From: an uncultured Roseibium sp.
Lineage (GTDB): Bacteria; Pseudomonadota; Alphaproteobacteria; Rhizobiales; Stappiaceae
Reading direction: 5' to 3'
NCBI RefSeq assembly: GCF_947494555.1
Contig: NZ_CANLVF010000006.1
Coordinates: forward strand, 101,374-165,373
Length of the DNA stretch: 64,000 bases
Under the pieces are notes generated by a model, which was given only the letters and a program-made list of their open reading frames with translations, ran no database searches and was not told the DNA's origin. Both the position numbers and the translations under genes were made by a program. Position 1 is the stretch's first letter; every line of letters starts with the position of its first letter. Of this stretch, positions 1 through 19,475 are shown one piece after another.

Positions 1-695
1 CGCGCATCGATGATTGAAATACCATTCAGATATGCGCGCGCGCCCAGAGGGTGGTAGGGCAAGAAACTGGACTTTCGACCCGCAAGCACCACACGAATTC
101 TTGGCTCCAACTCTAAAGTCGCCTTAACAACATCGGGTTCTTTGGCATCCTCTTTCAAAGCCACCACTTCAGGGATGCGCGCCAAGGACTGCAGCAATGA
201 TATCGGCCAGTTCATCTGCTTCCCGTCTTGCCCGGACAGGAAAGGCATTTCGTGAACCAGAACACCCAGCCCCGATTCCCGTCCGACCGTCGCAAAGTGC
301 TCCAGAACCTGATCGTCCTCGAAGTACTTTTCGCGGCAAATCACGGATATCAAATCGGCGCCGGCTTCTCGCGCCGCCCGGGCGCATTCAACACTGTGTT
401 TCGTGGAACAGTGGATGGGATCACCGACTATGACGGTGGACTCGGGGTCCATCTTTTTCACGGTTTGTGCGCAAAAGCGGTTGAGTTCGAAAATCTCATC
501 CATTGTCATTTGCGAGTAGCGCGAGTTGTACGCCATCGCATAGAATCTTCGGGCACCTTGAGCGTGTAGCGTGCGCAAATAGGCTTCGATACTGTCATAA
601 TCGACGTTTTCGTTCGCGTCGAAAGGCGTAAAAATAGTGTAGACGCAGCCCACAAGTTGGTCGCGCGCACGTTCAGCAACGTCTTTGTCAAACAT
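1..695 (-). CDS. DapA/N-acetylneuraminate lyase family (class I aldolase) protein, 3' end truncated by window edge
   Basis: Not in the ORF track; translated by hand. ATG at 695 with GGGGAG RBS, overlapping the stop of the upstream gene; open to position 1. MFDKDVAERARDQLVGCVYTIFTPFDANENVDYDSIEAYL...GADLISV...VVALKED. TPF..VDY N-terminus and Schiff-base Lys (codon 153-155, residue 181) fit the DHDPS-like TIM barrel. Confidence 0.8.
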   Translation of the reverse strand, partial: MFDKDVAERARDQLVGCVYTIFTPFDANENVDYDSIEAYLRTLHAQGARRFYAMAYNSRYSQMTMDEIFELNRFCAQTVKKMDPESTVIVGDPIHCSTKHSVECARAAREAGADLISVICREKYFEDDQVLEHFATVGRESGLGVLVHEMPFLSGQDGKQMNWPISLLQSLARIPEVVALKEDAKEPDVVKATLELEPRIRVVLAGRKSSFLPYHPLGARAYLNGISIIDA

Positions 696-1725
696 TGTGC
701 TCTCCCCTAATCCAGCGTTTCTTGTCTTCTTCGATCATCCTAGAGGCAAGCATTTCCACACTTGTCGTCGGGCGCCATCCAACGGCCTCTTCCAGCCGCG
801 AACAATCACCTCGCAGCGCCGGCGTCGGATTGCTTCGAAAATATTTTGGCGAAACCACCGCCAGTTCCAATCCGGACTCGGTATCCACGCAGCGTTCCGC
901 CAGGCCTTCACCCTCAAAGTGCGGATCAAAGCCGGCAGCCCGTGCCGCGCACTCGACAAACGTGCGCACGCTTGTGAGCTTGCCTGTGGACACGATAAAG
1001 TCTTCCGGCGGGTCATGGCGAATGATTGCGCGCATCGCCCCGACAAACTCTTCGGCGTCACCCCAGTCCCGCTCCGCAGACAGGTCTCCAAGAGCCATGG
1101 GCGGGCCACCTTCGATGGCAAGGCGCGCAAGATTTACAGTTATTTTGCGGGTAACAAACGAGCGGTCTTTCCATGGGCTTTCATGGTTAAACAGAATGCC
1201 GCTGGCAACGTGTAGTCCCTGGGTTTCACGATAAATTCGACCGAGGTGCAACACACTCAACTTTGCAAGACCATAAGGATTGCGAGGAGCGGGCAGACTT
1301 GTTTCTGACACCGGAGCCCCGGCGACTGACTGGCCGATCGCTTCTGAACTGGAAGCAAGGAAAACCCGGGCTTCCGGCGCGGCGACTCCAACGGCAACCA
1401 AAACGTTCAGCGTCCCGATGGTGTTCGCTTCCATCGTGACATTCGGATGGCGCAAGCTGTCTGCAACGTAGCTGTGACCGGCAAGATGGTAAACCTCGTG
1501 AGGCCTTGAGATCTTCATCGCTTCAATAAGCGAGTGCATGTCGTTGAGGTCCAACTCAACCAACTGGATGGAATCCTCCAGCGACATTTCCTTCAAGCGC
1601 CACAAACGCGCCGCACCACCTCGCCGGAAACCGCCGAATACCTCAACGCCTTCCTTGACAAGCTCGCGTACCATGAGGGCGCCGTCCTGCCCGGTTGCGC
1701 CAATGACAAGCGCTCGCGTTGCCAC
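688..1725 (-). CDS. GDP-mannose 4,6-dehydratase-like extended SDR (second, divergent Gmd/Rmd paralog)
   Basis: GATGQDG Rossmann motif, [29 protein letters not shown] motifs. Confidence 0.85.
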   Translation of the reverse strand: MATRALVIGATGQDGALMVRELVKEGVEVFGGFRRGGAARLWRLKEMSLEDSIQLVELDLNDMHSLIEAMKISRPHEVYHLAGHSYVADSLRHPNVTMEANTIGTLNVLVAVGVAAPEARVFLASSSEAIGQSVAGAPVSETSLPAPRNPYGLAKLSVLHLGRIYRETQGLHVASGILFNHESPWKDRSFVTRKITVNLARLAIEGGPPMALGDLSAERDWGDAEEFVGAMRAIIRHDPPEDFIVSTGKLTSVRTFVECAARAAGFDPHFEGEGLAERCVDTESGLELAVVSPKYFRSNPTPALRGDCSRLEEAVGWRPTTSVEMLASRMIEEDKKRWIRGEHNV

Positions 1726-1728
1726 GGT

Positions 1729-3546
1729 TCAAAGTTCCGTCAAGCGACGAATCGCTTCGCGAAAGCCGGCACCTCTGTCGAGATGACCTTGCCAAACCTC
1801 AATCACCTTAAGTCCCGGCAGTGCGAGTGCATCGCGGATAATGTCGTTGTTTCCGGGGTCTCCGTCGCCGAATTGCATGCCCTCACCATCCGTTCCAAGT
1901 GCGTCCGCCAGATGTACATGTCTCACTTGCGGGAGGAGCATATCGACAATTTCCGCCAAGTCGAAGCCGAACATGTTGCGACCAAGTAGCAAATGGCAAA
2001 CATCAAGACAGACGGGCATGTCACGCTTCACAAGATGTTTGGCATCAACAACGTTATTCATCGCCTTCAGCGCAACCGAGCCGCCAAAGTACCACGCAAT
2101 CGGAGGCAACCACTGCGGAGCAATCAATGCCCCGCGTTCAGAATAAGATCGGACAAGTTCGGCGTGACTGTCGTAGAATTTTTCAAGGCCGCCTTCGCTG
2201 TCCACTGGTACGGCTGAAAAACTTCCGACGATCGGCGTCTCAACGCCGGTCCTGTCACTCAGTGCGAGTGCAAAATCGACTGTCTTATCGAGAACTGACT
2301 TGCTCGCTTCACGCTGGCAGATATCCTTTGCAAAAGGATCCATGAGTTGCATGGAGTTTACGTAATCGGGAAGATGAACGCTGTAACTGCAATTGGGATC
2401 GGCGTTTCCCGCATCGGGAGTTGAAAGCACTTCCTTATAGGAAAGATGAAACTCGTAAGCTCCTATTGGAAACTGCCGGGCCATCAATCCCAGATCGTGC
2501 AGACGCACCGGAAGTGCAAGTTTCAGATCTTTTGCCCGGTCCAGATGCCAGTCTTCCAGTGGCGCCGCCGCGTCGAAATCACTGGGGCAAAGCGCATCGC
2601 CTTCTACAACGTCCACCCGTAGTGGACGCCCCAGATACGCGGCGATCTGGTTCCTGTCGAAACCGGTGTTTGGAGCTCGGTAAACCAAATCACGCGTGTC
2701 GAGCGTTTCTCCAGCACTGAGTGGCTTTGCGGCGTAGAAACAGCGCCCCAGATTCTGCCTGTTCATGAGCTCGCCCTGATTGGCAGCCCGCGGCCCGTCA
2801 CCAGCAACAATCAGCGGCAATGCATCGGCGAAAGACCTGATTTTCTGAAATTCATCCGGTGTTGAACTGCTGGAGTGATCAAGGCCCGGCCCGCTGCGGT
2901 CGAACGTCAGGTGCCGTTCAATCGTTGTCGCACCCTGTTGCAGTGCCAGAAGGCAGACTTCCCAGTGATCGTCATGGCTGGAATAGCCGACCGGACGCCC
3001 CCACCGCTGACGGAGATGGGCAATCTGACCAAGCCGGGCGTTTTCCAGCGACGTCGGATAGTTTGAAATGCAATGCAAAGGTGTCCAGTCAAATTCCGAC
3101 AGTGCGGAAAACGCCGCCTCGATGTCAGGTTCCGCATGTGCACCTGTTGAGAGATAGAGCGGTTTGCTGAGGCCACCTAAGAACGCCACGAGCGCAGCAT
3201 TGGTAAGTTCCGCGCTCGGAACCTTGAAAAAATCAAACTGTTCGAGCGAAGCGCCAAAATCGTCCGCATCGGCGTGGTCAAAAAAACTGATCCCTGCGTC
3301 CAGCCCCAGAGCCTGCGCTTGCGACGATAATTCCAAAAGACTTTCCGGCGGAAGGAAAGTTTTCCTGATCTCATCGATGAGTATTTCATCACCAATCTCG
3401 GTGGGCTCACCGTAATATGCCCGATCGAGGTTCCTGTATTGGAACTTTACCGCCGAGGCGCCGGATCGCGCAGCGGCACTGATCATTTCTTTTGCTTTGG
3501 CAAGGTCGCCATCATGATTGATGCCGATTTCCGCAATGAGATACAT
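1729..3546 (-). CDS. N-acetylneuraminate-synthase (NeuB) family protein fused to SAF and a C-terminal xylose-isomerase-like TIM barrel
   Basis: IAEIGINHDGD, AVKFQ, LHCISNYPT, GYSSH, IERHLT, DH motifs; SAF-like segment (CFYAAKPLSAGE); ~260 aa C-terminal domain with EFHL, SVHLPD, CLDVCH, HVHLAD, IEVWQGH metal-ligand pattern. Confidence 0.85.
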   Translation of the reverse strand: MYLIAEIGINHDGDLAKAKEMISAAARSGASAVKFQYRNLDRAYYGEPTEIGDEILIDEIRKTFLPPESLLELSSQAQALGLDAGISFFDHADADDFGASLEQFDFFKVPSAELTNAALVAFLGGLSKPLYLSTGAHAEPDIEAAFSALSEFDWTPLHCISNYPTSLENARLGQIAHLRQRWGRPVGYSSHDDHWEVCLLALQQGATTIERHLTFDRSGPGLDHSSSSTPDEFQKIRSFADALPLIVAGDGPRAANQGELMNRQNLGRCFYAAKPLSAGETLDTRDLVYRAPNTGFDRNQIAAYLGRPLRVDVVEGDALCPSDFDAAAPLEDWHLDRAKDLKLALPVRLHDLGLMARQFPIGAYEFHLSYKEVLSTPDAGNADPNCSYSVHLPDYVNSMQLMDPFAKDICQREASKSVLDKTVDFALALSDRTGVETPIVGSFSAVPVDSEGGLEKFYDSHAELVRSYSERGALIAPQWLPPIAWYFGGSVALKAMNNVVDAKHLVKRDMPVCLDVCHLLLGRNMFGFDLAEIVDMLLPQVRHVHLADALGTDGEGMQFGDGDPGNNDIIRDALALPGLKVIEVWQGHLDRGAGFREAIRRLTEL

Positions 3547-3874: not shown

Positions 3875-5686
3875 TCAGGCGGCCTTTTCCTTTTTGTTCT
3901 GGAACTGCAACTCGCAGAGCCTGCGGTAGATGCCATCGTGATCGAACAGCTCATCATGCGTGCCGCTTTCCACGACCTGGCCGTCGTCCATGACGTGAAT
4001 CATGTCGGCGTGCCTAACGGTGCTCAAACGGTGAGCGATCACCAGTGTGGTTTTGCCCTTGGTGAGCCGCTCAACGGCGCTTTGGATTTTGGCCTCAGAT
4101 TCCGAATCCAGCGCAGATGTCGCTTCGTCGAGCAGCAGGATCGGGGCGTTGCGGAGCATGGCGCGCGCGATGGCAATCCGCTGGCGCTGCCCGCCCGAAA
4201 GCTTGTTCCCGCCCTGCCCGGTGCTCGAGTCGTAACCCTTGGGCATACGCATGATAAAGTCATGGGCATTGGCGGCCTTTGCCGCGGCTTCGATTTCTTC
4301 CTGCGTCGCTCCCGGCTTGCCGATAGCGATGTTGTCGCGGACACTGAGTTCAAAGAGAAACGGGTCTTGTCCCACATAGGCAATCGATTGCCGCACTGAA
4401 TCGAGATTGCGTGACGGCAACGTCTGGTCATCTATCAGAACGTCTCCACTGTCGGGGTCGTAAAACCTTTCGATCAAAGCAAATACGGTCGATTTGCCAG
4501 CGCCGGATGCGCCCACAAGTGCAGTCATCTTGCCGGACCCTGCAGCAAAGCTGGTACCCTTCAGCGCCGGCGCTCCCTCGTAGGAAAAGACTACGTCCCG
4601 AAATTCGATCTTCCCGCCCGTGACACTCAGATCAGGGGCGTTCTCAATCTCTTTCATGCCCGGCACGCGATCGACCAGCTCATACATCATGCGAAGACCG
4701 ACCATGTTTTTACCGAGGTTCACGTTCAAACGCGCCAGACGCTTGGCCGGGTCGTATGCCAGAAGCAGGGCCGTGATGAACGAAAACAGTGCGCCCGGGT
4801 CCTGGCCGAGCTCAATAACCGAGAACCCTCCGTAGAACATGACGCCTGCAATCGCGAAGCCCCCTAATGTATCCATCAAAGGAGCCGTTCTGGCGGACAG
4901 GGAAGCAATCTTGTTCGACTGCCCCTGAACTTCGAGAATGCCCACTTCCATCCTTTGCATCATGAAAGATTCTAGGCTGAACGCCTTCACAGTGCGTATC
5001 CCGAGGACTGTGTCCTTTTGGGCGGCTCCGATTTTGACGCTCGAGACAACCTTCCGCTTGACGTATTGCTTCGTTCGTTTCACCAGAAAAGTCACGCCAA
5101 GGACCGCTGGCGGCATAATAAGCAGGGCAAAAATGCTCAGAAACGGGTTTTGAAGCAACATGACGAAAACCAGCCCGATAAGCGTCAGCAAATCGCGGCC
5201 AAGCGAAACAATGATCAGGTCAAGTGTCGTTTTCGCCGCCCCGACACCCTGTCCGATCCTAACTCCGATTTCCGAGATCGTGTTCTGGTCGAAGAAGGTC
5301 TGATCCTGGCGGACCATGTGAGCGAACATGCGCCTTCTCAGATCCGAAACGATTTCGTTGCCGACCCTGGACAGAACAACAAGTTGGCCGTAGGTCGACG
5401 CACCCTTCAGGACGAAAATAATCAGCACGGCGGTCGCAATGACATACACCATCGCCGCGTCCTTGTTGACGAATACCTCATTGACCACGTCGCGCATGAT
5501 CCAGGCACTGGCCGCCGTTGTCGCCGCGATAATACCCATGAAAACGAATGCCAGTGCGTATTTAGGCAGGTATTTCCTGAAATTCTCGCTTAACAGCCGC
5601 TTGACCAGCTGAACTGTTCCATCAGGGTCTTTAAATGTTTTCGAAGCGAATGGATTTCGCACGAAGCGGTTCCTTTCTAAGGCCAT
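3875..5686 (-). CDS. MsbA-like ABC exporter (fused TMD + NBD)
   Basis: N-terminal TM helices; Walker A GASGAGKS, signature LSGGQRQR, Walker B ILLLDE, IAHRLST. Confidence 0.9.
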   Translation of the reverse strand: MALERNRFVRNPFASKTFKDPDGTVQLVKRLLSENFRKYLPKYALAFVFMGIIAATTAASAWIMRDVVNEVFVNKDAAMVYVIATAVLIIFVLKGASTYGQLVVLSRVGNEIVSDLRRRMFAHMVRQDQTFFDQNTISEIGVRIGQGVGAAKTTLDLIIVSLGRDLLTLIGLVFVMLLQNPFLSIFALLIMPPAVLGVTFLVKRTKQYVKRKVVSSVKIGAAQKDTVLGIRTVKAFSLESFMMQRMEVGILEVQGQSNKIASLSARTAPLMDTLGGFAIAGVMFYGGFSVIELGQDPGALFSFITALLLAYDPAKRLARLNVNLGKNMVGLRMMYELVDRVPGMKEIENAPDLSVTGGKIEFRDVVFSYEGAPALKGTSFAAGSGKMTALVGASGAGKSTVFALIERFYDPDSGDVLIDDQTLPSRNLDSVRQSIAYVGQDPFLFELSVRDNIAIGKPGATQEEIEAAAKAANAHDFIMRMPKGYDSSTGQGGNKLSGGQRQRIAIARAMLRNAPILLLDEATSALDSESEAKIQSAVERLTKGKTTLVIAHRLSTVRHADMIHVMDDGQVVESGTHDELFDHDGIYRRLCELQFQNKKEKAA

Positions 5687-6995: not shown

Positions 6996-7970
6996 TCAGT
7001 TCAATTTCCCGAACAGCCTACCGAGTATTTTTTTCTTTATTTTTTCTATCTTGCCCGGGCCTCGCTTCTTGAGCCTGTAAAACCCTTGCAAGGCTTCGAA
7101 TGCTTCCGGGTCTTCCGCCAGAACATCCGGATACTCAATATTCAATTCCTGATTCAGTTTTCTCGCCTTGTTGCGAATTTCATCGACGTTGCAATGCTCG
7201 CCGCTTCCGTCAAAACCAATATTTTGCACGTAAGAAACGTTTGGGTTCAGACACAATCCGTCCTGTTTGAAGATCGTCGCATACCAGAAAATTGCCCAAG
7301 TGTTCATTCTGCCATCGGCATTGGCCAGAACCTGGAACCAGAATTTTTCACCGATTTCCAGATCAAATCGGTTGATCATGTCCGGCGTGAATTCACTCAG
7401 GAGCTTTTCAGGGTCCTTTTCGAAATGCTGCCATCTGTCGCGCCAGGTCGCCCACCCCCAGCAATTCATCAATCGTGAAAAATGGGTTTTCGTGAAGGCC
7501 TTGCTTCGCGTTGGTTCATTGTAGCCGCAGACATGCCAGACCTTTTTCTCGTCTTGGAAGTGCGAAAGACTGCCGTTCATGTAGTTCAGAAAGGCCGGGC
7601 TGGTGACGATGTCGTCTTCAAGGACAACTATCCTGTCGTGCTCCTCAAGAACCTTGGTTATTCCTTGGACAATACTCCCTGCCAAACCGATATTGGCCTC
7701 CTGCCGGACAATGGTGACCGACTTGAAGCCCTCTACCGCATCGGCGGTTGCGCAAATTTCCTGGATTGACGCGATATCTTTATCGGTTCGGGGACCGTCC
7801 ACAAACACGAACAGATCCGTATCGCCCACAAGATGGTTTTTCGCGATTGCGTCGAGTGTCTTGCGAGTATGATCCGGCCGATTGAAAGCAAAAAGCGCGA
7901 CGGGTGCCAGTTCCTTATTCTTCATCTGATGGCCTTCCTGCGCGTCTGTCACTGATGCTAAACCCGACAC
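6996..7970 (-). CDS. GT-A fold glycosyltransferase (GT2-like)
   Basis: LFAFNRPDHT, FVDGPR, VLEDD, CWGWATW motifs; alternative start at 7925 (MKNKE) has a GGAAGG RBS. Confidence 0.75.
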   Translation of the reverse strand: MSGLASVTDAQEGHQMKNKELAPVALFAFNRPDHTRKTLDAIAKNHLVGDTDLFVFVDGPRTDKDIASIQEICATADAVEGFKSVTIVRQEANIGLAGSIVQGITKVLEEHDRIVVLEDDIVTSPAFLNYMNGSLSHFQDEKKVWHVCGYNEPTRSKAFTKTHFSRLMNCWGWATWRDRWQHFEKDPEKLLSEFTPDMINRFDLEIGEKFWFQVLANADGRMNTWAIFWYATIFKQDGLCLNPNVSYVQNIGFDGSGEHCNVDEIRNKARKLNQELNIEYPDVLAEDPEAFEALQGFYRLKKRGPGKIEKIKKKILGRLFGKLN

Positions 7971-7998: not shown

Positions 7999-9180
7999 TC
8001 AAACTGTACTTCTCATCTGTTCATTTATGTTCTGGATATAGGTGCTGTTTCTTTTCGTAAACGAGGCCAGCCATTCTCGTTTCTGGTCACTGTCCACCGA
8101 TCGCTCTGATGACAGGTACTCCGCCAATTGCATGGCAGCTTTTTCAGGATAAGCATCCAAATGCAGAACGACGCCTTCCGGTATTTCATCCGAGAAGCTT
8201 GTGGAGTTCACGGCAACCGCTGTCGTGGAAGCAAAGCGAATGTTCTTGATAAGCGCCCCTTCGATCGACGCCGACCAGAAGGACGGCGAAAGGACGACTT
8301 TGCAGGACGAGACTGCGTCTCTAAGCCCGCTCGTCCAACTCATCTGAACAAAGGAACAGTTTTCAGGTGCATCATCGACATCCGCAGGACACTTGAACGG
8401 AAACAAGAATGAAAGCTGCGGCGCATGGCGTGCAACCGAAAGCGCCCAGCGGCTTCCTTTTGCAAGAACGTCGTTCCCGTGAAAGACGATATCCCACTGG
8501 GTATCGCCCGGCTTCGGCTCTTCGATGCCCTTTGTGCCTGCAATCAGGGACTCTTCAATGTCCGCTGTCCAAAGACCCACGACAGGCACAGGCATTCCAA
8601 ATTGCTGTTCGGCGAGCTTCGCCTGCCGTTCATTTTGCGCCAGAAATTGAACCTTCCCGGCGCGCGCGAGTGAATACAGCTTGCGAACAAACACAGTGGC
8701 GCTTGATGTCTGCCGGGGAAATGGCGAACACCCGTACATCTTGGCGGCATGCTGGTCGGGGTCGCCCAGGCATCTCAGACATGCCGCGTGTTCCATTGGC
8801 TGGTGGTTGTAGCTGCGGACGCAGAAGAAGCTCGACTCCAACAGGTAGATCCAGCAGTTCCCGCGCAGGAATTTAATGATCTTCAACGTCGCGGAAAACC
8901 CAAGGTCCTGCGGGTGCAGCAAGAGCACCGGCGTCTTTGACCTTCTCAGAAACCAGAGGCGGACAAAAAACAGGAGCCAACGCGGTGCGCCTTTCAGCCA
9001 CAAGAACAGTTCGCGAAAGACAGATCGGTCATCCCTCTTATCCAGCCTGGGACCCGGCTCGATGTACGGCAGTCCTTGCGCCACCAGGTAAGCCACCAGC
9101 TGACCGGTTCCGGACTTTCCCGCCGGGATCCCGCTGACGACTGCAAAATCACCTGAGACATTCGGCGCGGCACCGCTCAA
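7999..9180 (-). CDS. Putative GT-B glycosyltransferase-like protein with a Cys cluster
   Basis: Operon position (overlaps the rfbF stop); C-terminal VLSPSFWSASIEGAL resembles the GT4 donor-binding region; FFCVRS...CLRC...GCSP Cys cluster. Confidence 0.5.
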   Translation of the reverse strand: MSGAAPNVSGDFAVVSGIPAGKSGTGQLVAYLVAQGLPYIEPGPRLDKRDDRSVFRELFLWLKGAPRWLLFFVRLWFLRRSKTPVLLLHPQDLGFSATLKIIKFLRGNCWIYLLESSFFCVRSYNHQPMEHAACLRCLGDPDQHAAKMYGCSPFPRQTSSATVFVRKLYSLARAGKVQFLAQNERQAKLAEQQFGMPVPVVGLWTADIEESLIAGTKGIEEPKPGDTQWDIVFHGNDVLAKGSRWALSVARHAPQLSFLFPFKCPADVDDAPENCSFVQMSWTSGLRDAVSSCKVVLSPSFWSASIEGALIKNIRFASTTAVAVNSTSFSDEIPEGVVLHLDAYPEKAAMQLAEYLSSERSVDSDQKREWLASFTKRNSTYIQNINEQMRSTV

Positions 9181-9965
9181 CGGATATCCCTCCAGACCTT
9201 CCAGGGGGCATCACCGCTTTGCCATAGGTTTTCCAGATACTGCTTTTCGCGCAAGGTATCCATCGGTTGCCAGAACCCCTCGTGAACGAAGGCCGACATC
9301 TGGCCATCGTGCGAAATGCCCTTCATCGGAGCCTGTTCCCAAGGAGTGTCCTCGATATCAGGAGCCTGAAGATATGCTTCGATCTTCGGTGAAAGCACAA
9401 AAAAACCACCGTTGATCCAGCCGCTTTCCCCTCTGGGTTTCTCCACGAAGCCACTCACTTTTGTGTCTTCTATTTCAACCGCGCCGAAACGGCCGGGCAG
9501 CCTCACTGCAGTAACCGTTGCGAGGCGGCCTTCCTTGCGATGAAAAGCGATGCTCTCGGTGATGTCGATATCGGACAGACCATCGCCATAGGTCATGCAG
9601 AAATCGCTGTCACCCACATAAGGCAGTATCTTCTTGATCCGGCCGGCCGTCTGTGTGTTCAGCCCCGTCTCGATAAGCGTGATTTTCCAGGGTTCGGACC
9701 TGTTTTCGAGCAGCTCCACACCGCCGTTTTTCAGGTCTATCGTGACGTTTGATACATGCATCAAGTAGTTGGCAAAAAACTCCTTGATCATGTAACCCTT
9801 GTATCCGAGGCATATGATGAACTCGTTGATCCCGTGCGCGGAATACATCTTCATGATGTGCCAGAGGATCGGTTTGCCACCGATTTCGACCATTGGCTTT
9901 GGCCGGGTGACCGTTTCTTCGGCCAGCCTTGTTCCGAGCCCCCCCGCCAGAATTACCGCTTTCAT
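9177..9965 (-). CDS. rfbF: Glucose-1-phosphate cytidylyltransferase
   Basis: AVILAGGLGTRLAEET..PKPMVEIGGKPILWHIMK, TYGDG, WINGGFF, FWQPMDTLR. Confidence 0.95.
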   Translation of the reverse strand: MKAVILAGGLGTRLAEETVTRPKPMVEIGGKPILWHIMKMYSAHGINEFIICLGYKGYMIKEFFANYLMHVSNVTIDLKNGGVELLENRSEPWKITLIETGLNTQTAGRIKKILPYVGDSDFCMTYGDGLSDIDITESIAFHRKEGRLATVTAVRLPGRFGAVEIEDTKVSGFVEKPRGESGWINGGFFVLSPKIEAYLQAPDIEDTPWEQAPMKGISHDGQMSAFVHEGFWQPMDTLREKQYLENLWQSGDAPWKVWRDIR

Positions 9966-11059
9966 TTAATCGGTTCCATTTGTTCCATTGAGCTTAGAGC
10001 GGTCTCATATTCATTGATCTGGGCCAGCGTCAATGCTGTCAGGTCTTCGCCATCATTGAAGCCCCTATACCATTCAACCGTTCTTTGCAGTGCGGTCCGG
10101 GTGTCCCACACCGGACGCCATCCCAACCCGAAAAGCGCCTTCGAATTATCCAGTGCAAGTATCCTGGCTTCTTTCTTCTCTGTGTCAGCGTGCCCCGTAG
10201 TGCCCCAATCGGCACTCCCACCCCAACACGCTTTCAAGACATTCGCGATTTTCCTGACTTCCCAGATGCCCTCGACATTCGGACCAAAATTCCAGCCTTC
10301 GCCGAATTGTTTCGGGTCTTCGGCGAGCCGTTCGGCAAGGAGCATATACCCGCTCAGCGGCTCCAGAACGTGTTGCCAAGGCCTGATCGCATGCGGGTTC
10401 CTTATGATCGCGGTCTCGTTTTTCATGAAAGAGCCGACAATATCCGGAACCAGTCTGTCGATTGCCCAGTCGCCGCCGCCGATCACGTTGCCGGCTCTGG
10501 CAGTTGCCAATCCCGTCCGGTTTTGCGCAAAGAAGGAATGCCGGTAGGACGCGGTAAGAATTTCCGCCGCCCCCTTGCTGGCTGAATACGGGTCCTTGCC
10601 GCCGATAGCCTCGTTCTCACGATAGCCCCAGACCCATTCCTTGTTGTCGTAACACTTGTCGCTGGTTATGACGACAATCGCTTCAAGCCCAGTGACCGTC
10701 CGGAGCGCATCGAGCAAGTATGCGGTTCCCATGACGTTTGTTTCGAACGTTTCGAGCGGGCTGTCATAGGACAATCGCACCAGCGGCTGTGCGGCGAGAT
10801 GGAAGACGATTTGAGGGCTGCAACACTCAATCGCGTCCCGGACCAGCGCCGGATCCCGCAAATCCACCCTGAAGTCGTTTTCCAGACCGTTGCCCGCGTC
10901 AGTGCAGACATAAAGATGCCGTTCGCTTTCCGGGTCGAGTGCAACGCCGCTTACATTCGCGCCAAGCCGTTTCAGCCAGTGGAGCAGCCAACTGCCCTTG
11001 AACCCCGTGTGACCGGTGACCAGAACGCGCTTGCCCTGCCAAAATTCTTTTTTGAGCAT
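9962..11059 (-). CDS. rfbG: CDP-glucose 4,6-dehydratase
   Basis: FWQGKRVLVTGHTGFKGSWL, HLAAQPLVR, TSDKCY, DPYSASK, RAGNVIGGGDW, RPWQHVLEPL. Confidence 0.95.
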   Translation of the reverse strand: MLKKEFWQGKRVLVTGHTGFKGSWLLHWLKRLGANVSGVALDPESERHLYVCTDAGNGLENDFRVDLRDPALVRDAIECCSPQIVFHLAAQPLVRLSYDSPLETFETNVMGTAYLLDALRTVTGLEAIVVITSDKCYDNKEWVWGYRENEAIGGKDPYSASKGAAEILTASYRHSFFAQNRTGLATARAGNVIGGGDWAIDRLVPDIVGSFMKNETAIIRNPHAIRPWQHVLEPLSGYMLLAERLAEDPKQFGEGWNFGPNVEGIWEVRKIANVLKACWGGSADWGTTGHADTEKKEARILALDNSKALFGLGWRPVWDTRTALQRTVEWYRGFNDGEDLTALTLAQINEYETALSSMEQMEPIK

Positions 11060-11088
11060 AATATCTTTCTGACGCTAGATGTCCCCGG

Positions 11089-11982
11089 TTATCCGGCTGT
11101 GTCATCCCATTCCCGCAGCAATTCTTCAACACCTTCCGCGATTTTTATCTTTGGCTCCCACCCACTGAGTTTTGGTCCGACAAACGGCACCATAAGCTGA
11201 TTGCTGCGATAGGGGCGCGCTCCCCAATTGACGTTCATCGCCCGACCAGAAACCGTTTCGACAACGCGTGCCAGCTCTCTCACCGTTATGACTTCATCGC
11301 CGCAAACATACTGATTGGGGTTGGATGACCCGGTACCATCGCTCAAGTTCTCGAGCGCCAAAATAACCGCGGCAACCGCATCCCGAACATGGAGTGGCAC
11401 CATCTTCTGCAGGCCCGGGGTCGCATCCATCGAGTTGCCGGTTCTGGCAGCCGAAATCAGCTCCGGAAGAAGCTTCGGCCTGGTGTCGCCAGGGCCATAC
11501 AAGTCGTACAAAACAAGAGTTATCGCATTCAAATCATGCCAGTCAGCATAATAGCTCAGCATCTCGGAAAACGCTTGCTTGGTAGCCGCGTAGAGCGAAT
11601 TGGGCTTCACATCACCGTTTTCACCAAACTGCGAAAAGGTGCCCATGTTGACAAAACCGGTCACGCCCGCCAGCCGTGAAGCCTCAAGGATCTTGCCGCC
11701 GAAAAGCAAATTGGCGTTCAGAATGTCCATTGCGTTTCCGGCAGTTTCATCAGCCGGATAAATTGTCGCCACATGGATGACGCGCGATATCTTCTGGCGT
11801 TTGAAATCATCTGCGAGCTTCTGGACGTCACCGTCATCCCGAAGGATCTGAAAGTTCGCATATGCCTCCGGCGGTCGTCCCGCCCGAACCAGGGCGAAGG
11901 CGGGAATGTCTCGCTTCTGGAGTTCACGCATTATGTGCCTTCCCAAGAACCCGCTCGCCCCTGTTACCAGAACAGCACTCAT
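11089..11982 (-). CDS. NAD-dependent epimerase/reductase, RfbJ/RfbS (abequose/paratose synthase)-like
   Basis: GASGFLG, YAATK, DLYGPGD, WGARPYR; immediately upstream of rfbG. Confidence 0.75.
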   Translation of the reverse strand: MSAVLVTGASGFLGRHIMRELQKRDIPAFALVRAGRPPEAYANFQILRDDGDVQKLADDFKRQKISRVIHVATIYPADETAGNAMDILNANLLFGGKILEASRLAGVTGFVNMGTFSQFGENGDVKPNSLYAATKQAFSEMLSYYADWHDLNAITLVLYDLYGPGDTRPKLLPELISAARTGNSMDATPGLQKMVPLHVRDAVAAVILALENLSDGTGSSNPNQYVCGDEVITVRELARVVETVSGRAMNVNWGARPYRSNQLMVPFVGPKLSGWEPKIKIAEGVEELLREWDDTAG

Positions 11983-14589: not shown

Positions 14590-15561
14590 TCAGCGTCCGG
14601 AACCAAAGGCCTGAGAATAGGTATCCGAGATGCCCTCGCGCAGCGCGCGCGCGGCGTTCCAACCGAGTGAATTCAACAAAGATGTATCAGCCAGTTTACG
14701 AGGTGTCCCGTCCGGTTTGCTTGCGTCAAATTTCAACGTTCCGTCAAAGCCGACAATCTCGCAAACGAGTTCCGCGAGAACCCTGATGCTGATTTCCTCG
14801 CCCGATCCGATGTTGACCGGTTTCGCCCCCGAATAGGTCCTGGCCAGATGCACGACCGCATCGGCGAGGTCATCGACATGCAAAAACTCTCTCAACGGAG
14901 TGCCACTGCCCCAAACTTCCAGCGTGTCGTGACCTGCCACCTTGGCTTCATGCGCTTTTCGCAAAAGAGCCGGCAGCACGTGGCTGGACTCAAGGTCATA
15001 GTTGTCCCCCGGACCGTAGAGGTTCGTGGGTTGGACTGAAATGAAATTGCTTCCATATTGCGCGCGATAGGCCTGACACAGCTTCACACCTGCGATTTTT
15101 GCGATCGCATACCACTCGTTTGTCGGCTCGAGCGGTCCTGTCAGGAGACTGTCCTCGCTTATCGGCTGAGGCGCCATCTTGGGATAGATACAGGTCGATC
15201 CCAAAAAGACGAGTTTTTTGACTAAAGTCTGATGAGCCGCATGAATGACATTCGCTTCAATCATGAGATTGTCATAAAGAAACTCTGCCGGATGGGAACT
15301 GTTGGCCTGTATGCCGCCGACCTTCGCAGCGGCCAAGAACACGACGTCAGGCCGACTGGCGTTCATCCAGGCTTCAACTTCACCCTGTTGCTTCAAGTCA
15401 ACCGCCTGCCTGTCGACCGTAAGGATGTTGCATGCTTCGCTCTGCAAACGGCGGCAGAGCGCGCTTCCAACCATTCCATTGTGACCGGCAACGAAAACCC
15501 GTTTTGCCGTCAGGTCGAATCCGGACCGGCCTGTGAGGTCGCTTGAAGGTGTTCCTTGCAT
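14590..15561 (-). CDS. fcl: GDP-L-fucose synthase
   Basis: VAGHNGMVGSA, LAAAKVGGI, LGSTCIYPK, EPTNEWYAIAKIAG, PTNLYGPGDN, REFLHVDDLA, KPDGTPRK. Confidence 0.95.
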   Translation of the reverse strand: MQGTPSSDLTGRSGFDLTAKRVFVAGHNGMVGSALCRRLQSEACNILTVDRQAVDLKQQGEVEAWMNASRPDVVFLAAAKVGGIQANSSHPAEFLYDNLMIEANVIHAAHQTLVKKLVFLGSTCIYPKMAPQPISEDSLLTGPLEPTNEWYAIAKIAGVKLCQAYRAQYGSNFISVQPTNLYGPGDNYDLESSHVLPALLRKAHEAKVAGHDTLEVWGSGTPLREFLHVDDLADAVVHLARTYSGAKPVNIGSGEEISIRVLAELVCEIVGFDGTLKFDASKPDGTPRKLADTSLLNSLGWNAARALREGISDTYSQAFGSGR

Positions 15562-15573
15562 GAAAGCCTCAGT

Positions 15574-16653
15574 TCAAGCGTCCGTCCGAGAGGAATTCTT
15601 GGCATTGTCCAGCTCGGCCGGAACAGTTTCCAAATCGGATCGCACCATTTGTGCCACCATGTCCTTGAAGGACGTTTCAGGCACCCAGCCCAAGGTGTCG
15701 CGAGCTTTGCGGGCGTCACCGATCAGGAGATCAACTTCAGTCGGCCGGAAGTAACGCGGATCGACCGAGACGATCACGTTACCCGTCTCTTTATCAATCC
15801 CCTGTTCGTTCACACCTTCACCTTCCCAACGAAGGGCAATTCCGACCTCGCCAAAGGCCAATTCAACAAACTCACGAACCGAGTGCTTTTCGCCGGTTGC
15901 CAGCACAAAATCATCCGCGACATCGTTTTGAACGATGCGCCACATCCCCTCGACATAATCCTTTGCATGGCCCCAGTCGCGCTCTGCGTCGAGGTTTCCG
16001 AGGTAAAGCCGGTCCTGCAAACCAAGCTTGATCGCAGCAACCGCGCGAGTAATTTTTCGGGTGACGAAGGTCTCTCCGCGGATAGGGCTTTCGTGATTGA
16101 ACAAGATGCCGTTGCTGGCGTGAATTCCGTAGGCTTCTCGGTAGTTTACGACAATCCAGTAGGCATATAGCTTGGCTGCCGCATAAGGACTGCGCGGGTA
16201 AAACGGCGTCTTTTCCGATTGCGGCACTTCCTGCACCTTGCCGTAAAGCTCGGAGGTGGACGCCTGGTAAAATCGCGTTTTGTCCGTGAGGTTCAGGAGA
16301 CGGATCGCCTCAAGCAGGCGCAGCGTTCCCAGGGCATCCGCGTTGCCCGTATACTCGGGCGTTTCGAAGGACACCTGCACGTGGCTTTGGGCGGCCAGAT
16401 TGTAGACTTCGTCAGGCTGAACTTCCTGCATAATGCGGATCAGGTTGGTTGAATCCGTCATATCCCCGTAGTGCAGGTGCAGCTTTACATTCTTCTCGTG
16501 CGGGTCCTGGTAGAAATGATCGATCCGCGCGGTGTTGAACGATGAGGATCTGCGTTTGATCCCATGAACCGTGTATCCCTTGCCAAGCAGAAGTTCCGCG
16601 AGATAGGCGCCGTCCTGCCCTGTGATACCGGTGATAAGTGCTGTTTTTGTCAT
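15574..16653 (-). CDS. gmd: GDP-mannose 4,6-dehydratase
   Basis: Start re-assigned to ATG 16653 ([23 protein letters not shown]); [41 protein letters not shown]. Confidence 0.97.
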
Positions 16654-17769: not shown

Positions 17770-18513
17770 CTACGCCGCGGTTGTGAAAATCGTGCCTTTT
17801 TGCGCCGCCGTATCGAAGTCGAAGCCGAACAGTTCAAGGTCGGACGCGTACCAATCGGCGACCGCCTGTATGGCGCTTTTTGAATAGAAATCCTTGTAAG
17901 ATGCACTCGCATTGCGAGACACATTCTTGGATTCGAGCCTGTCGGCAACGTCGAAATAGCGCGAGACCTCCTCGCTCAGGTTTTCCTGACGCAAGATCTC
18001 GACCGCAACCCGGCCCGTTTCGTCAACGACGTAATCCGACTGCGGATACCAGCCGAGCGATGCCCTGTGCCAAAAATAGTCCTGTTTGCCGACATCGTGA
18101 CGTGTTTCCAGGAACGCTTCAAAACCGCTCGTGGAAAGCTCGGTTTTCGGCAGTTTCCCACCACCGGTTTGAAGGTAGAACTTGTACCGTGAAAACGTGC
18201 GGGCCCAGGGATTGCGGATCACTGCAAATGCGATGGTCCCGCCGCGCACGGACTTGTCGATATCGCGCAAGCGTGCGTGCTCGTATCCTGGATGAAGTTT
18301 CCTGGATGTCATGAAGTTCTGAAGCTCGTCCGCATACTTCTTGCTGACCAGGCGCCTGCGATGCGCGATGATGATCCGGTCCTTCAAGGCAGGCGCTTCG
18401 CGAAGCGCCATCCCGCCGTTTTTGGGGATGTGCACAAGAAGGTGTTTTTTAGCGGCAAGACCAAGACGTGCGGGCGCAAATTTCAGGAAGTTCTTGAGCT
18501 GGTACTCGTCCAT
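17770..18513 (-). CDS. Sulfotransferase family 2 domain protein
   Basis: 5'-PSB-like VHIPKNGG and 3'-PB-like IRNPWARTFSRY motifs; terminal YASDLELFGF. Confidence 0.75.
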   Translation of the reverse strand: MDEYQLKNFLKFAPARLGLAAKKHLLVHIPKNGGMALREAPALKDRIIIAHRRRLVSKKYADELQNFMTSRKLHPGYEHARLRDIDKSVRGGTIAFAVIRNPWARTFSRYKFYLQTGGGKLPKTELSTSGFEAFLETRHDVGKQDYFWHRASLGWYPQSDYVVDETGRVAVEILRQENLSEEVSRYFDVADRLESKNVSRNASASYKDFYSKSAIQAVADWYASDLELFGFDFDTAAQKGTIFTTAA

Positions 18514-18557: not shown

Positions 18558-19475
18558 CTACCGCCGCATGTCAATTTGGTGGTGCCTTATCCCAATCTTC
18601 CAGTCCTGTCCATTCATCGGCTCGCCATCCAGGTTGAACTGGACAGGTTTTGCGGTCTGAATGACGATCTCGCGCGCTTTTCTCTGGACAAGGCCGTTCT
18701 TCATGCCGTCGACGCCACTGTCCAGGAGTGTCGAAAGCAGGTCCGTAACTTTCCCGGACTTCGGAAACGGCACAATGGTCAGGTCGAGAAATCCATCATC
18801 GAGCTTGGCACGGGGGCAAAGACGGATCCCGCCTCCGGCGCGCCGTCCATTGCCGACGGCAAGTGCAAGAAAGGCACCTTCCCAGCAAAATCCTTCCGAT
18901 TCGATCCTGCCTTCGCATGCAGCCAGTTCCGAAAACCGGTGCAGACCGGTGAACAAATAGGCCGCCCCGCCAAGGACACGCTTCAGGTTCGGGTCCGTTT
19001 GAGAGGTCACCTGGGTTCCAAATCCACCCGTTGCCATATTGACGAAACAGCAACCGTTGACCTCACCGACATCCATCGGTTTGGCACTGGCACGCGCTAT
19101 AAAACGCAGGCAGCCCGGAATGTCGGCAGGATCCAGACGTATGTGACGGGCAAAGTCATTCGCGGTTCCCAGCGGCAGCACCGCAAATGAAAAGGGTGGC
19201 TTCTCCCCGTCGCCCAGTTCTTGCAGCACCGAATCCACAACTTCATGGATCGTTCCGTCACCGCCGGCGCTCACCAGTGTGTCGATCTCGTCTGCCGCCT
19301 GATCCCTCAATGCTTCCTTTGCAAGCCGCTCCGTATCTCCGGCCTCATAGGTTACACGAACCGAAACCGTATGGCCCATCGCCCTGACCGCGCTCACCGC
19401 CGTGCGCACGTCGTTCCGTGCAGCCGACTTTCCGTTCAAGATCAAGCGCAGGTGTTGCTTGTCATTCCGTCTCAT
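18558..19475 (-). CDS. yegS: YegS-like lipid kinase (DAGK catalytic family)
   Basis: LNGKS, AGGDGT, LPLGTANDFA, FVNMATGGFG, GNGRRAGGG, NLDGEP. Confidence 0.85.
   Translation of the reverse strand: MRRNDKQHLRLILNGKSAARNDVRTAVSAVRAMGHTVSVRVTYEAGDTERLAKEALRDQAADEIDTLVSAGGDGTIHEVVDSVLQELGDGEKPPFSFAVLPLGTANDFARHIRLDPADIPGCLRFIARASAKPMDVGEVNGCCFVNMATGGFGTQVTSQTDPNLKRVLGGAAYLFTGLHRFSELAACEGRIESEGFCWEGAFLALAVGNGRRAGGGIRLCPRAKLDDGFLDLTIVPFPKSGKVTDLLSTLLDSGVDGMKNGLVQRKAREIVIQTAKPVQFNLDGEPMNGQDWKIGIRHHQIDMRR

Follow-up and report, generated by a model that had tools for sequence, protein, structure and literature searches.

The question raised by this locus

Bacterial nonulosonate pathways known to date almost all yield aminated sugars (Neu, Leg, Pse), and the nonulosonic acids on bacterial surfaces influence phage recognition, immune recognition and marine particle chemistry. 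The biochemistry of Kdn biosynthesis in Proteobacteria has, to our knowledge, not been worked out. A locus at the start of a 64,000-nucleotide stretch of DNA from an uncultured Roseibium sp. (that whole stretch being the window referred to below) poses the question of which sugar is made where a NeuB-type synthase carrying a metal-binding TIM barrel as a fused domain is accompanied by a Gmd-like dehydratase and a DHDPS-like gene and by none of the usual amination genes. The gene content, its conservation, the identities of the domains and the lack of amination and NeuC genes are matters of observation. These genes most likely serve to build a modified relative of Kdn for a surface polysaccharide, which would be a nine-carbon acidic sugar free of nitrogen and activated with CMP.

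Gene arrangement

The sequence-only reading described three co-oriented genes with 3-nt or overlapping junctions, and this is what is found, all on the minus strand (Table 1). The stop of the fusion gene (1729-1731) is separated by 3 nt from the GTG start of the Gmd-like gene (1723-1725), whose own stop (688-690) overlaps the DHDPS-like (aldolase) gene, with its ATG at 693-695, the ORF overlap being 8 nt. Of the latter gene 231 N-terminal codons are inside the window and the remaining 279 nt are to its left. Since each of the three has hundreds of homologues (45-67% identity) and their order is kept in unrelated bacteria, they are genuine genes and not chance ORFs.

Table 1. Features of the cassette and its surroundings (window positions unless L001 is given)
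Feature	Position	Strand	Evidence
Divergent DHDPS/NAL-family Schiff-base gene	1-695, cut by window edge; in full L001 14721-15695	minus	PF00701, 61.5 bits for the full protein (324 aa)
Gmd-like SDR (GDP-hexose 4,6-dehydratase paralogue)	688-1725	minus	345 aa; PF16363 GDP_Man_Dehyd, 276 bits
NeuB-SAF synthase fused to metal-binding TIM barrel	1729-3546	minus	605 aa; PF03102, SAF, PF01261
C-terminal metal-binding TIM barrel (xylose-isomerase/endonuclease-IV superfamily)	1732-2556	minus	residues 331-605 of fusion; PF01261 AP_endonuc_2, 41 bits
NeuB (PEP-condensing ulosonate synthase) + SAF domain	2557-3546	minus	residues 1-330 of fusion; PF03102, 152 bits (cut-off 22.1); SAF, 19.6 bits (slightly below cut-off 21)
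MsbA/PglK-type fused ABC exporter, upstream of cassette	3875-5686	minus	PF00664 + PF00005; TIGR02203, 479 bits, below cut-off
GT2/GNT-I-like glycosyltransferase	6996-7970	minus	Pfam GT2/GNT-I
GDP-L-fucose synthase (fcl), context gene	14590-15561	minus	NF047922, 500.5 bits, at cut-off 500
Canonical GDP-mannose 4,6-dehydratase (gmd), context gene	15574-16647	minus	TIGR01472, 606 bits (cut-off 415)
CMP-sugar cytidylyltransferase	L001 14002-14742, immediately left of window		PF02348, 66 bits

That no CMP-synthetase had been noticed is true of the window, but its absence there is an effect of the window's edge. The same reading had allowed for missing genes there, and a cytidylyltransferase does lie to the left, right after the aldolase gene, so fewer genes are missing than was first apparent; the aminotransferase, N-acetyltransferase and NeuC sought with it are not there. 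The enzyme has the CTP_transf_3 domain expected, next to synthase genes, of a CMP-nonulosonate or CMP-Kdo synthetase. It is PseF-like (110 bits, under the cut-off of 205.7), with KdsB matches that are much weaker and limited to the N-terminal part. Beyond it are a PhyH dioxygenase, a methyltransferase and a 481-aa putative sialyltransferase-like glycosyltransferase, from a family in which QxG, HP and ST..E motifs are invariant and which has weak polysialyltransferase matches.

A conserved cassette

Judged from homologous loci, a four-gene cassette has been kept by many bacteria of marine and fresh waters. Its order (fusion, Gmd-like, DHDPS-like, cytidylyltransferase) is repeated in seven unrelated loci (L002-L005 and L087-L089) from Gammaproteobacteria, Burkholderiales, Thiotrichales and metagenomes, which bears out the earlier view of the three genes as one unit. 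The neighbourhood comparison of homologues that had been proposed as a check gave a recurrent four-gene order with amination genes absent. Congeners have a shorter, three-gene form that lacks the DHDPS-like gene, and in G036 the three genes stand alone with no other sugar genes around. Homologues of the fusion number about 1000 and orthologues of the DHDPS-like protein about 500, in Methylophaga, Roseibium, Thiotrichales, Burkholderiales and many metagenomes, and many of the best DHDPS-like matches are on contigs equal in length to those of fusion homologues, as expected under co-occurrence. In most loci manC adjoins the cassette; in Ensifer canadensis manC, cytidylyltransferase and NeuB-TIM genes are contiguous.

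The synthase domain and a proposed route

The N-terminal domain of the fusion is a NeuB by Pfam and by structure (its best Foldseek matches being NeuB and PseI), though scoring well below the Neu5Ac synthase equivalog level (TIGR03569, 190 bits versus a cut-off of 399.65) and the PseI level (TIGR03586, 139 versus 340.25). The catalytic and PEP/metal residues of Neisseria meningitidis NeuB (1XUZ), namely E25, K53, Q55, K129, S132, E134, S154, H215, H236, D247 and R314, are on alignment identical in the window protein (E6, K34, Q36, K108, S111, E113, S133, H191, H212, D223 and R290), and are invariant or nearly so across 43 fusions. These residues do not tell substrates apart, which counts against the reading preferred here.

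From this gene set we infer a substrate, an order of steps and a product. The Gmd-like enzyme would first 4,6-dehydrate GDP-mannose, as its retained catalytic and NDP-binding residues suggest. The TIM domain would then ready a free aldose, either by GDP release in place of NeuC, LegG or PseG, or by isomerisation or epimerisation of the keto sugar; this is the weakest step, and we know of no precedent for nucleotide-sugar release, or the like, by such a domain. The NeuB domain would join the aldose to PEP, giving a Kdn-type nitrogen-free 3-deoxy-non-2-ulosonic acid that would lack the 9-hydroxyl and possibly carry a 7-keto group. The DHDPS-like enzyme might form a lysine Schiff base with the open-chain 2-keto acid and so tailor it (C4 epimerisation or dehydration), a step that would be optional given the absence of its gene from the three-gene form. 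The cytidylyltransferase would yield the CMP-sugar, the adjacent PhyH dioxygenase and methyltransferase probably decorate the sugar, and the 481-aa HP-motif protein probably transfers it onto the glycan. The 3,9-dideoxy-nonulosonate suggested by the sequence-only reading is a reasonable candidate for the specific product. Taken whole, this reading, in which a GDP-hexose 4,6-dehydratase feeds a Kdn-type pathway that leads to an undescribed 9-deoxy or keto nonulosonate, has in our estimation a probability of about 0.5; the core cassette contains neither a 4-ketoreductase gene nor a recognised nucleotide-sugar hydrolase, which counts against it. A more elaborate version, rather unlikely in its entirety, would make it a new route. 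In it, a dedicated GDP-hexose 4,6-dehydratase and the NeuB-fused barrel (as a new nucleotide-sugar-releasing enzyme replacing NeuC, PseG and LegG) would provide NeuB with a 6-deoxy, possibly 4-keto, hexose, and the DHDPS-like enzyme would remodel the 2-keto acid through a Schiff base (by dehydration, by inverting C4, or even by closing a ring onto a 7-keto group); the resulting 9-deoxy nonulosonate, without nitrogen and with added hydroxyl or methyl groups, would be widespread on marine bacterial surfaces.

The TIM barrel, and whether it acts on a phospho-sugar

The AlphaFold2 model of the TIM domain (pLDDT 87) has as Foldseek neighbours UlaE, APN1/EndoIV, MJ1311, ketose 3-epimerases and AsbF; the closest structures, keto-sugar epimerases and Endo IV, reach a TM of only about 0.6, which weighs against the role proposed above. 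Profile comparison gives E values of 6e-13 with MJ1311 and 3e-5 with Endo IV. With the MJ1311, ketose 3-epimerase and endonuclease IV barrels (PF01261) the domain shares its fold and, as metal positions, D-x-x-H, H-x-x-D and a terminal Glu, and with MJ1311, for which we know of no function, also the stretch HxHxxDxxGxDxE(G/H)LxIGEG. It differs from all of them in being fused to NeuB, in having Gln (Gln478) in the window clade as first canonical metal/base Glu, with Glu only in some distant fusions, and in extra invariant His, Asp and Arg residues. Invariant across 17 distant fusions are R348, D351, E365, H367, H391, D515, H518, H543, H545, D548, E555, E583 and H588. Ketose 3-epimerases (DTE/UlaE) have a pair of catalytic Glu in an E-D-H-E metal site; mapped through the motifs of MJ1311 and Endo IV, this site is not complete in the window domain, and the Gln at its first position likewise counts against the role proposed above.

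The endonuclease IV-like features are what gives weight to an alternative in which NeuB condenses mannose-6-phosphate with PEP to Kdn-9-phosphate, the barrel is the phosphatase (in place of a HAD enzyme), and the Gmd-like and DHDPS-like enzymes tailor Kdn or, following CMP activation, CMP-Kdn (e.g. by C5/C7 dehydration or C4 epimerisation). Fusion of a synthase to the next enzyme of its pathway is a common arrangement, and for the capsule locus of Serratia marcescens, where neuB is required for Kdn, only neuA and the fused neuB are reported for sialic-acid biosynthesis (PMC9000132). However, the presence of manC beside the cassette in most loci does not favour it. Of the nine ligand positions of Endo IV, nearly all survive in distant fusions, which speaks for the alternative, but two of those for Zn1 are lost in the window clade, and motifs of the Gmd-like enzyme that we take to bind the NDP-hexose diphosphate suit a GDP-sugar better than a CMP-monophosphate sugar. 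Such a phospho-sugar route is improbable.

The Gmd-like enzyme: pathway member or passenger

The Gmd-like SDR has Aquifex Gmd (2z1m, 257 bits) as its best PDB match and on alignment retains the catalytic motifs S-x-E (S/T-x-E in Gmd) and YxxxK and the NDP-hexose-binding motifs NHE(S/G)P, VTRKI, RDWG and YFR, of which the last three, with their Arg residues, are the presumed diphosphate binders. The Glu of RPxEV, which we assume to contact guanine in Gmd, is Asp in orthologues and absent in the window copy. A TIGR01472 score of 247 bits, below the equivalog cut-off of 415, counts against dehydration of GDP-mannose as proposed, and the canonical gmd/fcl pair in the same cluster (38% identity between the two Gmd proteins) means that the paralogue could have a different substrate.

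About as improbable as the phospho-sugar route is the possibility that the locus makes ordinary Kdn in the Serratia manner, with the Gmd-like and DHDPS-like genes as passengers that serve other residues of the polysaccharide, e.g. GDP-D-rhamnose or a deoxy sugar. The cluster does have many other deoxy-sugar genes (gmd, fcl, CDP-glucose 4,6-dehydratase, SDRs), and short Gmd enzymes such as that of P. aeruginosa (1rpn match, 200 bits) are real GDP-mannose dehydratases. Against passenger status, the Gmd-like gene is in every locus between the synthase and cytidylyltransferase genes and translationally coupled, of the six congeners that have the shorter cassette, five contain no other Gmd homologue in the genome (which supports the earlier placing of the gene in the pathway), and the isolated three genes of G036, with the contigs apparently shared by DHDPS-like and fusion genes, point the same way.

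Absence of an amination route

The sequence-only reading found no aminotransferase, N-acetyltransferase or 2-epimerase companions, and this extends from the window to the left flank and the seven related loci. None of the three (the last as hydrolysing 2-epimerase) is encoded by the ORFs on either side of the cassette, and the complete canonical Neu, Leg or Pse set that might have been next door (DegT aminotransferase, N-acetyltransferase, NeuC/PseG hydrolase) was looked for in the locus and is not there. NeuC (PF02350) has no match in the whole genome, DegT (PF01041) has none on the contig of the cassette (C6), and neither is in the Pfam lists of the seven related loci. A canonical aminated nonulosonate, made with aminotransferase, acetyltransferase and hydrolase genes elsewhere in the genome, is very improbable despite a second NeuB on contig C2, 14 DegT-family matches on other contigs and Hexapep acyltransferases or a GlmS-like gene in some related loci, for besides these absences the match of the Gmd-like enzyme to LegB reaches just 53 bits, PseB gives no match, and the studied Serratia relative of the fusion yields mainly Kdn (PMC9000132).

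The DHDPS-like enzyme

The DHDPS-like protein has its best NCBIfam match in the KdgD subfamily (58 bits), every equivalog score being under 60 bits and far below cut-offs. Its VALKEDA Lys aligns with the GIKEA Lys of DHDPS and is invariant among orthologues, a tight group of about 500 proteins with at least 60% identity. With the N-acetylneuraminate lyase/KdgD branch of the DHDPS superfamily, whose known enzymes dehydrate 2-keto-3-deoxy sugar acids or split them by aldol cleavage, it has in common the TIM barrel and this Schiff-base lysine. In contrast to that branch, the carboxylate-binding GxTGE (S/T-T) and catalytic Tyr (YNxP) motifs are replaced, GTTGE by AYNSR and YNxP by HEMP, and both replacements are invariant in the orthologues. 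The sequence-only reading gave a role neither to this enzyme nor to the TIM domain, and those put forward here are tentative.

Relationship to known systems

The legionaminic and pseudaminic pathways (LegB-C-H-G-I-F; PseB-C-H-G-I-F) follow the logic proposed here, in which an NDP-hexose 4,6-dehydratase leads to a free 6-deoxy sugar, NeuB-type PEP condensation and CMP activation, and their products are 9-deoxy nonulosonates, as the product of the cassette would be. The cassette differs in having no aminotransferase, N-acetyltransferase or NeuC/PseG-type hydrolase, in its dehydratase being Gmd-like and not LegB or PseB, and in its TIM domain and DHDPS-like enzyme, which have no counterpart there.

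Closer is the KL1/KL2 capsule of S. marcescens, where neuA and a NeuB with an extra COG1082 domain, the sole such fusion studied, are required for a Kdn capsule (PMC9000132); the earlier suggestion of a nitrogen-free nonulosonate fits this case. Both loci pair a NeuB fused to a barrel of the sugar-phosphate isomerase/epimerase type (AP_endonuc_2/COG1082) with a CMP-sugar cytidylyltransferase and lack aminotransferase and NeuC, the Serratia side being taken from the published description; the Serratia product is a nitrogen-free nonulosonate in a surface polysaccharide, which for the window is a likeness suggested by the genes. However, the Serratia module as described is neuA and neuB only, with a longer NeuB (2241-bp ORF) and no mention of a Gmd-like or DHDPS-like gene (PMC9000132), and that ordinary Kdn is made without any Gmd-like gene counts against the dehydratase-fed reading. 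The window fusion is only about 30% identical to long-form fusions (L024, L095), the Serratia NeuB having been compared by its description.

Solving the cassette would show how NeuB-TIM fusions build nitrogen-free nonulosonates, those of clinical Serratia capsules included, and would probably uncover a new sugar. It would also give functions to a large branch of the DHDPS family and to MJ1311-like barrels, and provide enzymes for modified Kdn donors.

The surrounding surface-glycan cluster, of about 24 kb and dependent on the ABC exporter, contains gmd/fcl, a CDP-6-deoxyhexose branch (CDP-glucose 4,6-dehydratase), SDRs, methyltransferases, a sulfotransferase and glycosyltransferases. Some of this context recurs with the cassette. 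An ABC exporter is also ahead of it in L004, L087, L088 and L089, fcl is kept nearby in most related loci, and the canonical gmd is 64-73% identical to the gmd beside the cassette in L002-L004 and L087-L089. The GT2/GNT-I-like glycosyltransferase travels with it too, being 36-37% identical to the one encoded next after the HP-motif protein in L003, L004, L087 and L088.

The cassette and its surroundings

Three minus-strand genes occupy the first 3.5 kb of the window (see table), a 3-nt gap separating the fusion gene from the SDR gene and an 8-nt overlap joining the latter to the DHDPS-like gene, just as the sequence-only reading had it. The DHDPS-like gene is whole in the left flank, L001, where it encodes 324 aa, and further left come genes for a 246-aa cytidylyltransferase (CTP_transf_3; PseF-like at 110 bits), a dioxygenase of the PhyH family, a class I methyltransferase and a 481-aa protein without a match in a Pfam search. 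Beyond its gene both strand and theme switch (class II aldolase, HAD, kinase). The earlier caution that missing genes might lie to the left of the window was justified for the CMP-synthetase, which is there, and not for aminotransferase, N-acetyltransferase or NeuC.

To the right of the three genes are a fused ABC exporter, glycosyltransferases, methyltransferases, a CDP-glucose branch, fcl, gmd and a sulfotransferase, followed by a LysR regulator, the whole locus, about 24 kb, being a surface-glycan cluster. Both fcl (500 bits) and gmd (606 bits) are of the true type. The CDP-hexose branch implies that a CDP-6-deoxyhexose enters the same glycan, and since a sulfotransferase occurs here and also in two of the related loci (L004 and L089), the glycan may be sulfated. 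Two ORFs inside the cluster, of 393 and 416 aa, had no match in Pfam or NCBIfam, nor in tblastn against related loci. The true start of the canonical gmd is probably near 16647, with the 143 upstream codons likely untranslated, because the gmd model begins only at residue 144 of the longest ORF.

Features of the cluster, by position in the window (C6:101374-165373 of the 7.0-Mb assembly)
Feature	Position	Strand	Remarks
DHDPS-family protein, N-terminal part	3-695	-	ORF leaves window
Gmd-like SDR, 345 aa	688-1725	-	GDP-mannose dehydratase Pfam model, 276 bits
NeuB fusion, 605 aa	1729-3546	-	PF03102, 152 bits; weak SAF; C-terminal xylose-isomerase-like TIM barrel PF01261, 41 bits
GT2/GNT-I-like transferase counterpart	6996-7970		36-37% identity to transferases of related loci
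ORF, 393 aa	7999-9180	-
CDP-hexose branch	9177-11982	-	NTP_transferase-family nucleotidyltransferase; CDP-glucose 4,6-dehydratase TIGR02622, 467 bits; 297-aa SDR
ORF, 416 aa	13333-14583	-
Canonical gmd, longest ORF, 500 aa	15574-17076	-
Sulfotransfer_2 protein	17770-18513	-	right end of cluster
YegS/DAGK-type lipid kinase	18558-19475	-	right end of cluster

Recurrence of the cassette

The order fusion, Gmd-like, DHDPS-like, cytidylyltransferase recurs in seven loci from unrelated bacteria (Aurantivibrio, one Burkholderiales MAG, Thiotrichales and several metagenomes). Upstream, the usual neighbors encode an ABC exporter, a methyltransferase and a PhyH dioxygenase; downstream there usually follows a protein that matches nothing in Pfam and is about 480-500 aa long, then the GT2/GNT-I-like transferase, and manC, gmd and fcl are often next to the cassette. 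A role in secondary metabolism was rejected: glycosyltransferases, ABC or Wzx exporters and nucleotide-sugar genes mark all the loci as glycan clusters.

The fusion has its nearest relative, 87% identical, in Roseibium sp. MMSF_3544; of about a thousand homologues, the best 120 are, that match aside, about 50-59% identical. (A scan of genome contigs for fusion relatives was dominated by the generic NeuB motif IAEIGINH.) The DHDPS-like orthologues, about 500 sequences, group tightly; the best 120 are at least 60% identical, and Methylophaga is among the cultured carriers. Many are on contigs whose lengths match contigs listed with fusion homologues, as would be expected from co-occurrence of the two. 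Full-text literature searches gave no paper on this cassette, nor on the Gmd-like or DHDPS-like partners. As predicted from its genes, the unit is a new and widespread form of nonulosonate biosynthesis, and its product is probably a sugar without prior description.

More distant full-length fusions (27-34% identity) are present in Pelagibacter, Prochlorococcus, Actinobacteria, Verrucomicrobia and others, usually accompanied by a cytidylyltransferase and an SDR. In loci from Pelagibacter (L085, 16123-20977) and Prochlorococcus (L086, 16320-19768) the fusions are beside heptose-type genes, namely SIS isomerase, PfkB kinase plus CTP_transf_like, HAD phosphatase and, in Pelagibacter, a transaldolase-like gene; with such neighbors, some NeuB-TIM fusions may use larger aldoses.

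Features of the individual enzymes

The Gmd-like SDR scores 247 bits against a gmd equivalog cut-off of 415, but retains S-x-E, YxxxK, NHE(S/G)P, VTRKI, RDWG and YFR and is 45% identical to Aquifex Gmd, so it should be a competent NDP-hexose 4,6-dehydratase. At the position of one Gmd Glu, which we take to be a guanine contact, the Gmd-like enzymes have Asp or no residue, a change judged too weak for reassignment to another nucleotide.

The DHDPS-like protein keeps the Schiff-base lysine, with AYNSR in place of the carboxylate-binding GxTGE and HEMP in place of the catalytic Tyr motif; among families it comes nearest, though very weakly, to the KdgD dehydratases. The HP-motif proteins, of about 480-500 aa, share invariant QxG, HP and ST..E positions, and two of five match a polysialyltransferase family in Pfam weakly (E 0.003), while a profile search against the PDB gave no match; the protein is a putative CMP-ulosonate transferase.

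Proposed route and its alternatives

The route favored overall, at a probability of about 0.5, starts from a GDP-sugar. The Gmd-like enzyme would dehydrate GDP-mannose, and the TIM domain might then prepare or release the free 6-deoxy sugar, with the 4-keto group perhaps still on. NeuB would condense this with PEP to a 9-deoxy Kdn-type acid, which the DHDPS-like enzyme may remodel via a Schiff base. After activation by the cytidylyltransferase, and possibly decoration by the PhyH protein and methyltransferase, the HP-motif protein would transfer the sugar, and the ABC exporter would handle the glycan. GDP-mannose as sugar source is also pointed to by the Ensifer canadensis replicon pT173e (1.9-Mb, without annotation in PLSDB), where a long-form NeuB-TIM fusion directly follows manC and a cytidylyltransferase (L095, 9363-13920); this rhizobial locus is a candidate for Kdn synthesis.

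The NeuB domain retains all catalytic, PEP-binding and metal residues of the N. meningitidis enzyme, the SAF-domain arginine included, and as all are canonical the active site gave no substrate clue. A Foldseek search with the entire fusion gave only NeuB-like proteins and DAHP/KDO8P synthases. Modelled on its own (pLDDT 87), the TIM domain shows moderate likeness (TM about 0.6) to keto-sugar 3-epimerases, MJ1311, AsbF and endonuclease IV, the closest profiles being MJ1311 (E 6e-13) and Endo IV (E 3e-5). Thirteen of its polar residues are invariant in a comparison of 17 distant fusions; in the clade of the cassette Gln takes the place of the first canonical Glu, which speaks against the usual mechanism of ketose 3-epimerases. 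That the TIM domain is instead a Kdn-9-P phosphatase in a phospho-sugar route, with tailoring afterwards, is unlikely.

About as unlikely, or slightly more so, is plain Kdn as product, with other sugars served by the two extra genes.

Kdn, plus some Neu5Ac, is what Serratia marcescens KL1/KL2 capsule strains make, and deletion of neuB ends production (PMC9000132), the one functional study found and the sole paper mentioning the fusion. Since that neuB is needed for Kdn, NeuB-TIM fusions are linked to a nitrogen-free nonulosonate, the Serratia NeuB being likened on its published description. Bearing on the extra genes, six of 12 congeners have fusion (45% identity), Gmd-like gene (39%) and cytidylyltransferase without the DHDPS-like gene, an arrangement present also on a Thioploca contig. 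In one such congener, G036, no other sugar-pathway gene is recognizable within the 20 kb read, where the neighbors include housekeeping genes along with two proteins unmatched in Pfam, and in five of the six the Gmd-like gene is the sole Gmd homologue of the genome. The Gmd-like enzyme is therefore part of the ulosonate pathway; an extra tailoring step, we infer, is what the DHDPS-like enzyme adds.

A canonical aminated pathway with its remaining genes elsewhere in the genome is very improbable: the genome has 14 DegT matches, none on the contig of the window, and a whole-genome search for NeuC (PF02350) gave none. The cluster lacks aminotransferase, N-acetyltransferase and NeuC genes, which lends partial support to the initial proposal of a nitrogen-free pathway; the CMP-synthetase that it had not seen lies outside the window. 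(Magnetospirillum C10 ulosonic acids are N-acetylated, and the relevant passages of the SugarBase preprint tie them to no gene cluster.)

A second NeuB

Another NeuB, short at 301 aa and lacking a SAF domain, is encoded outside the window, at C2:731569-735451, in a locus unrelated to the cassette. By eye, its neighbors include a 394-aa cytidylyltransferase-like protein with an additional C-terminal part, two methyltransferase-like proteins and a TPR-like repeat protein of 614 aa. The same neighborhood in G036 (ferredoxin-NADP-reductase-like gene, AlkZ, DUF4139) carries the three-gene fusion cassette instead, and it may be a protein-glycosylation site, perhaps for flagellin, at which the sugar module is exchanged between species.
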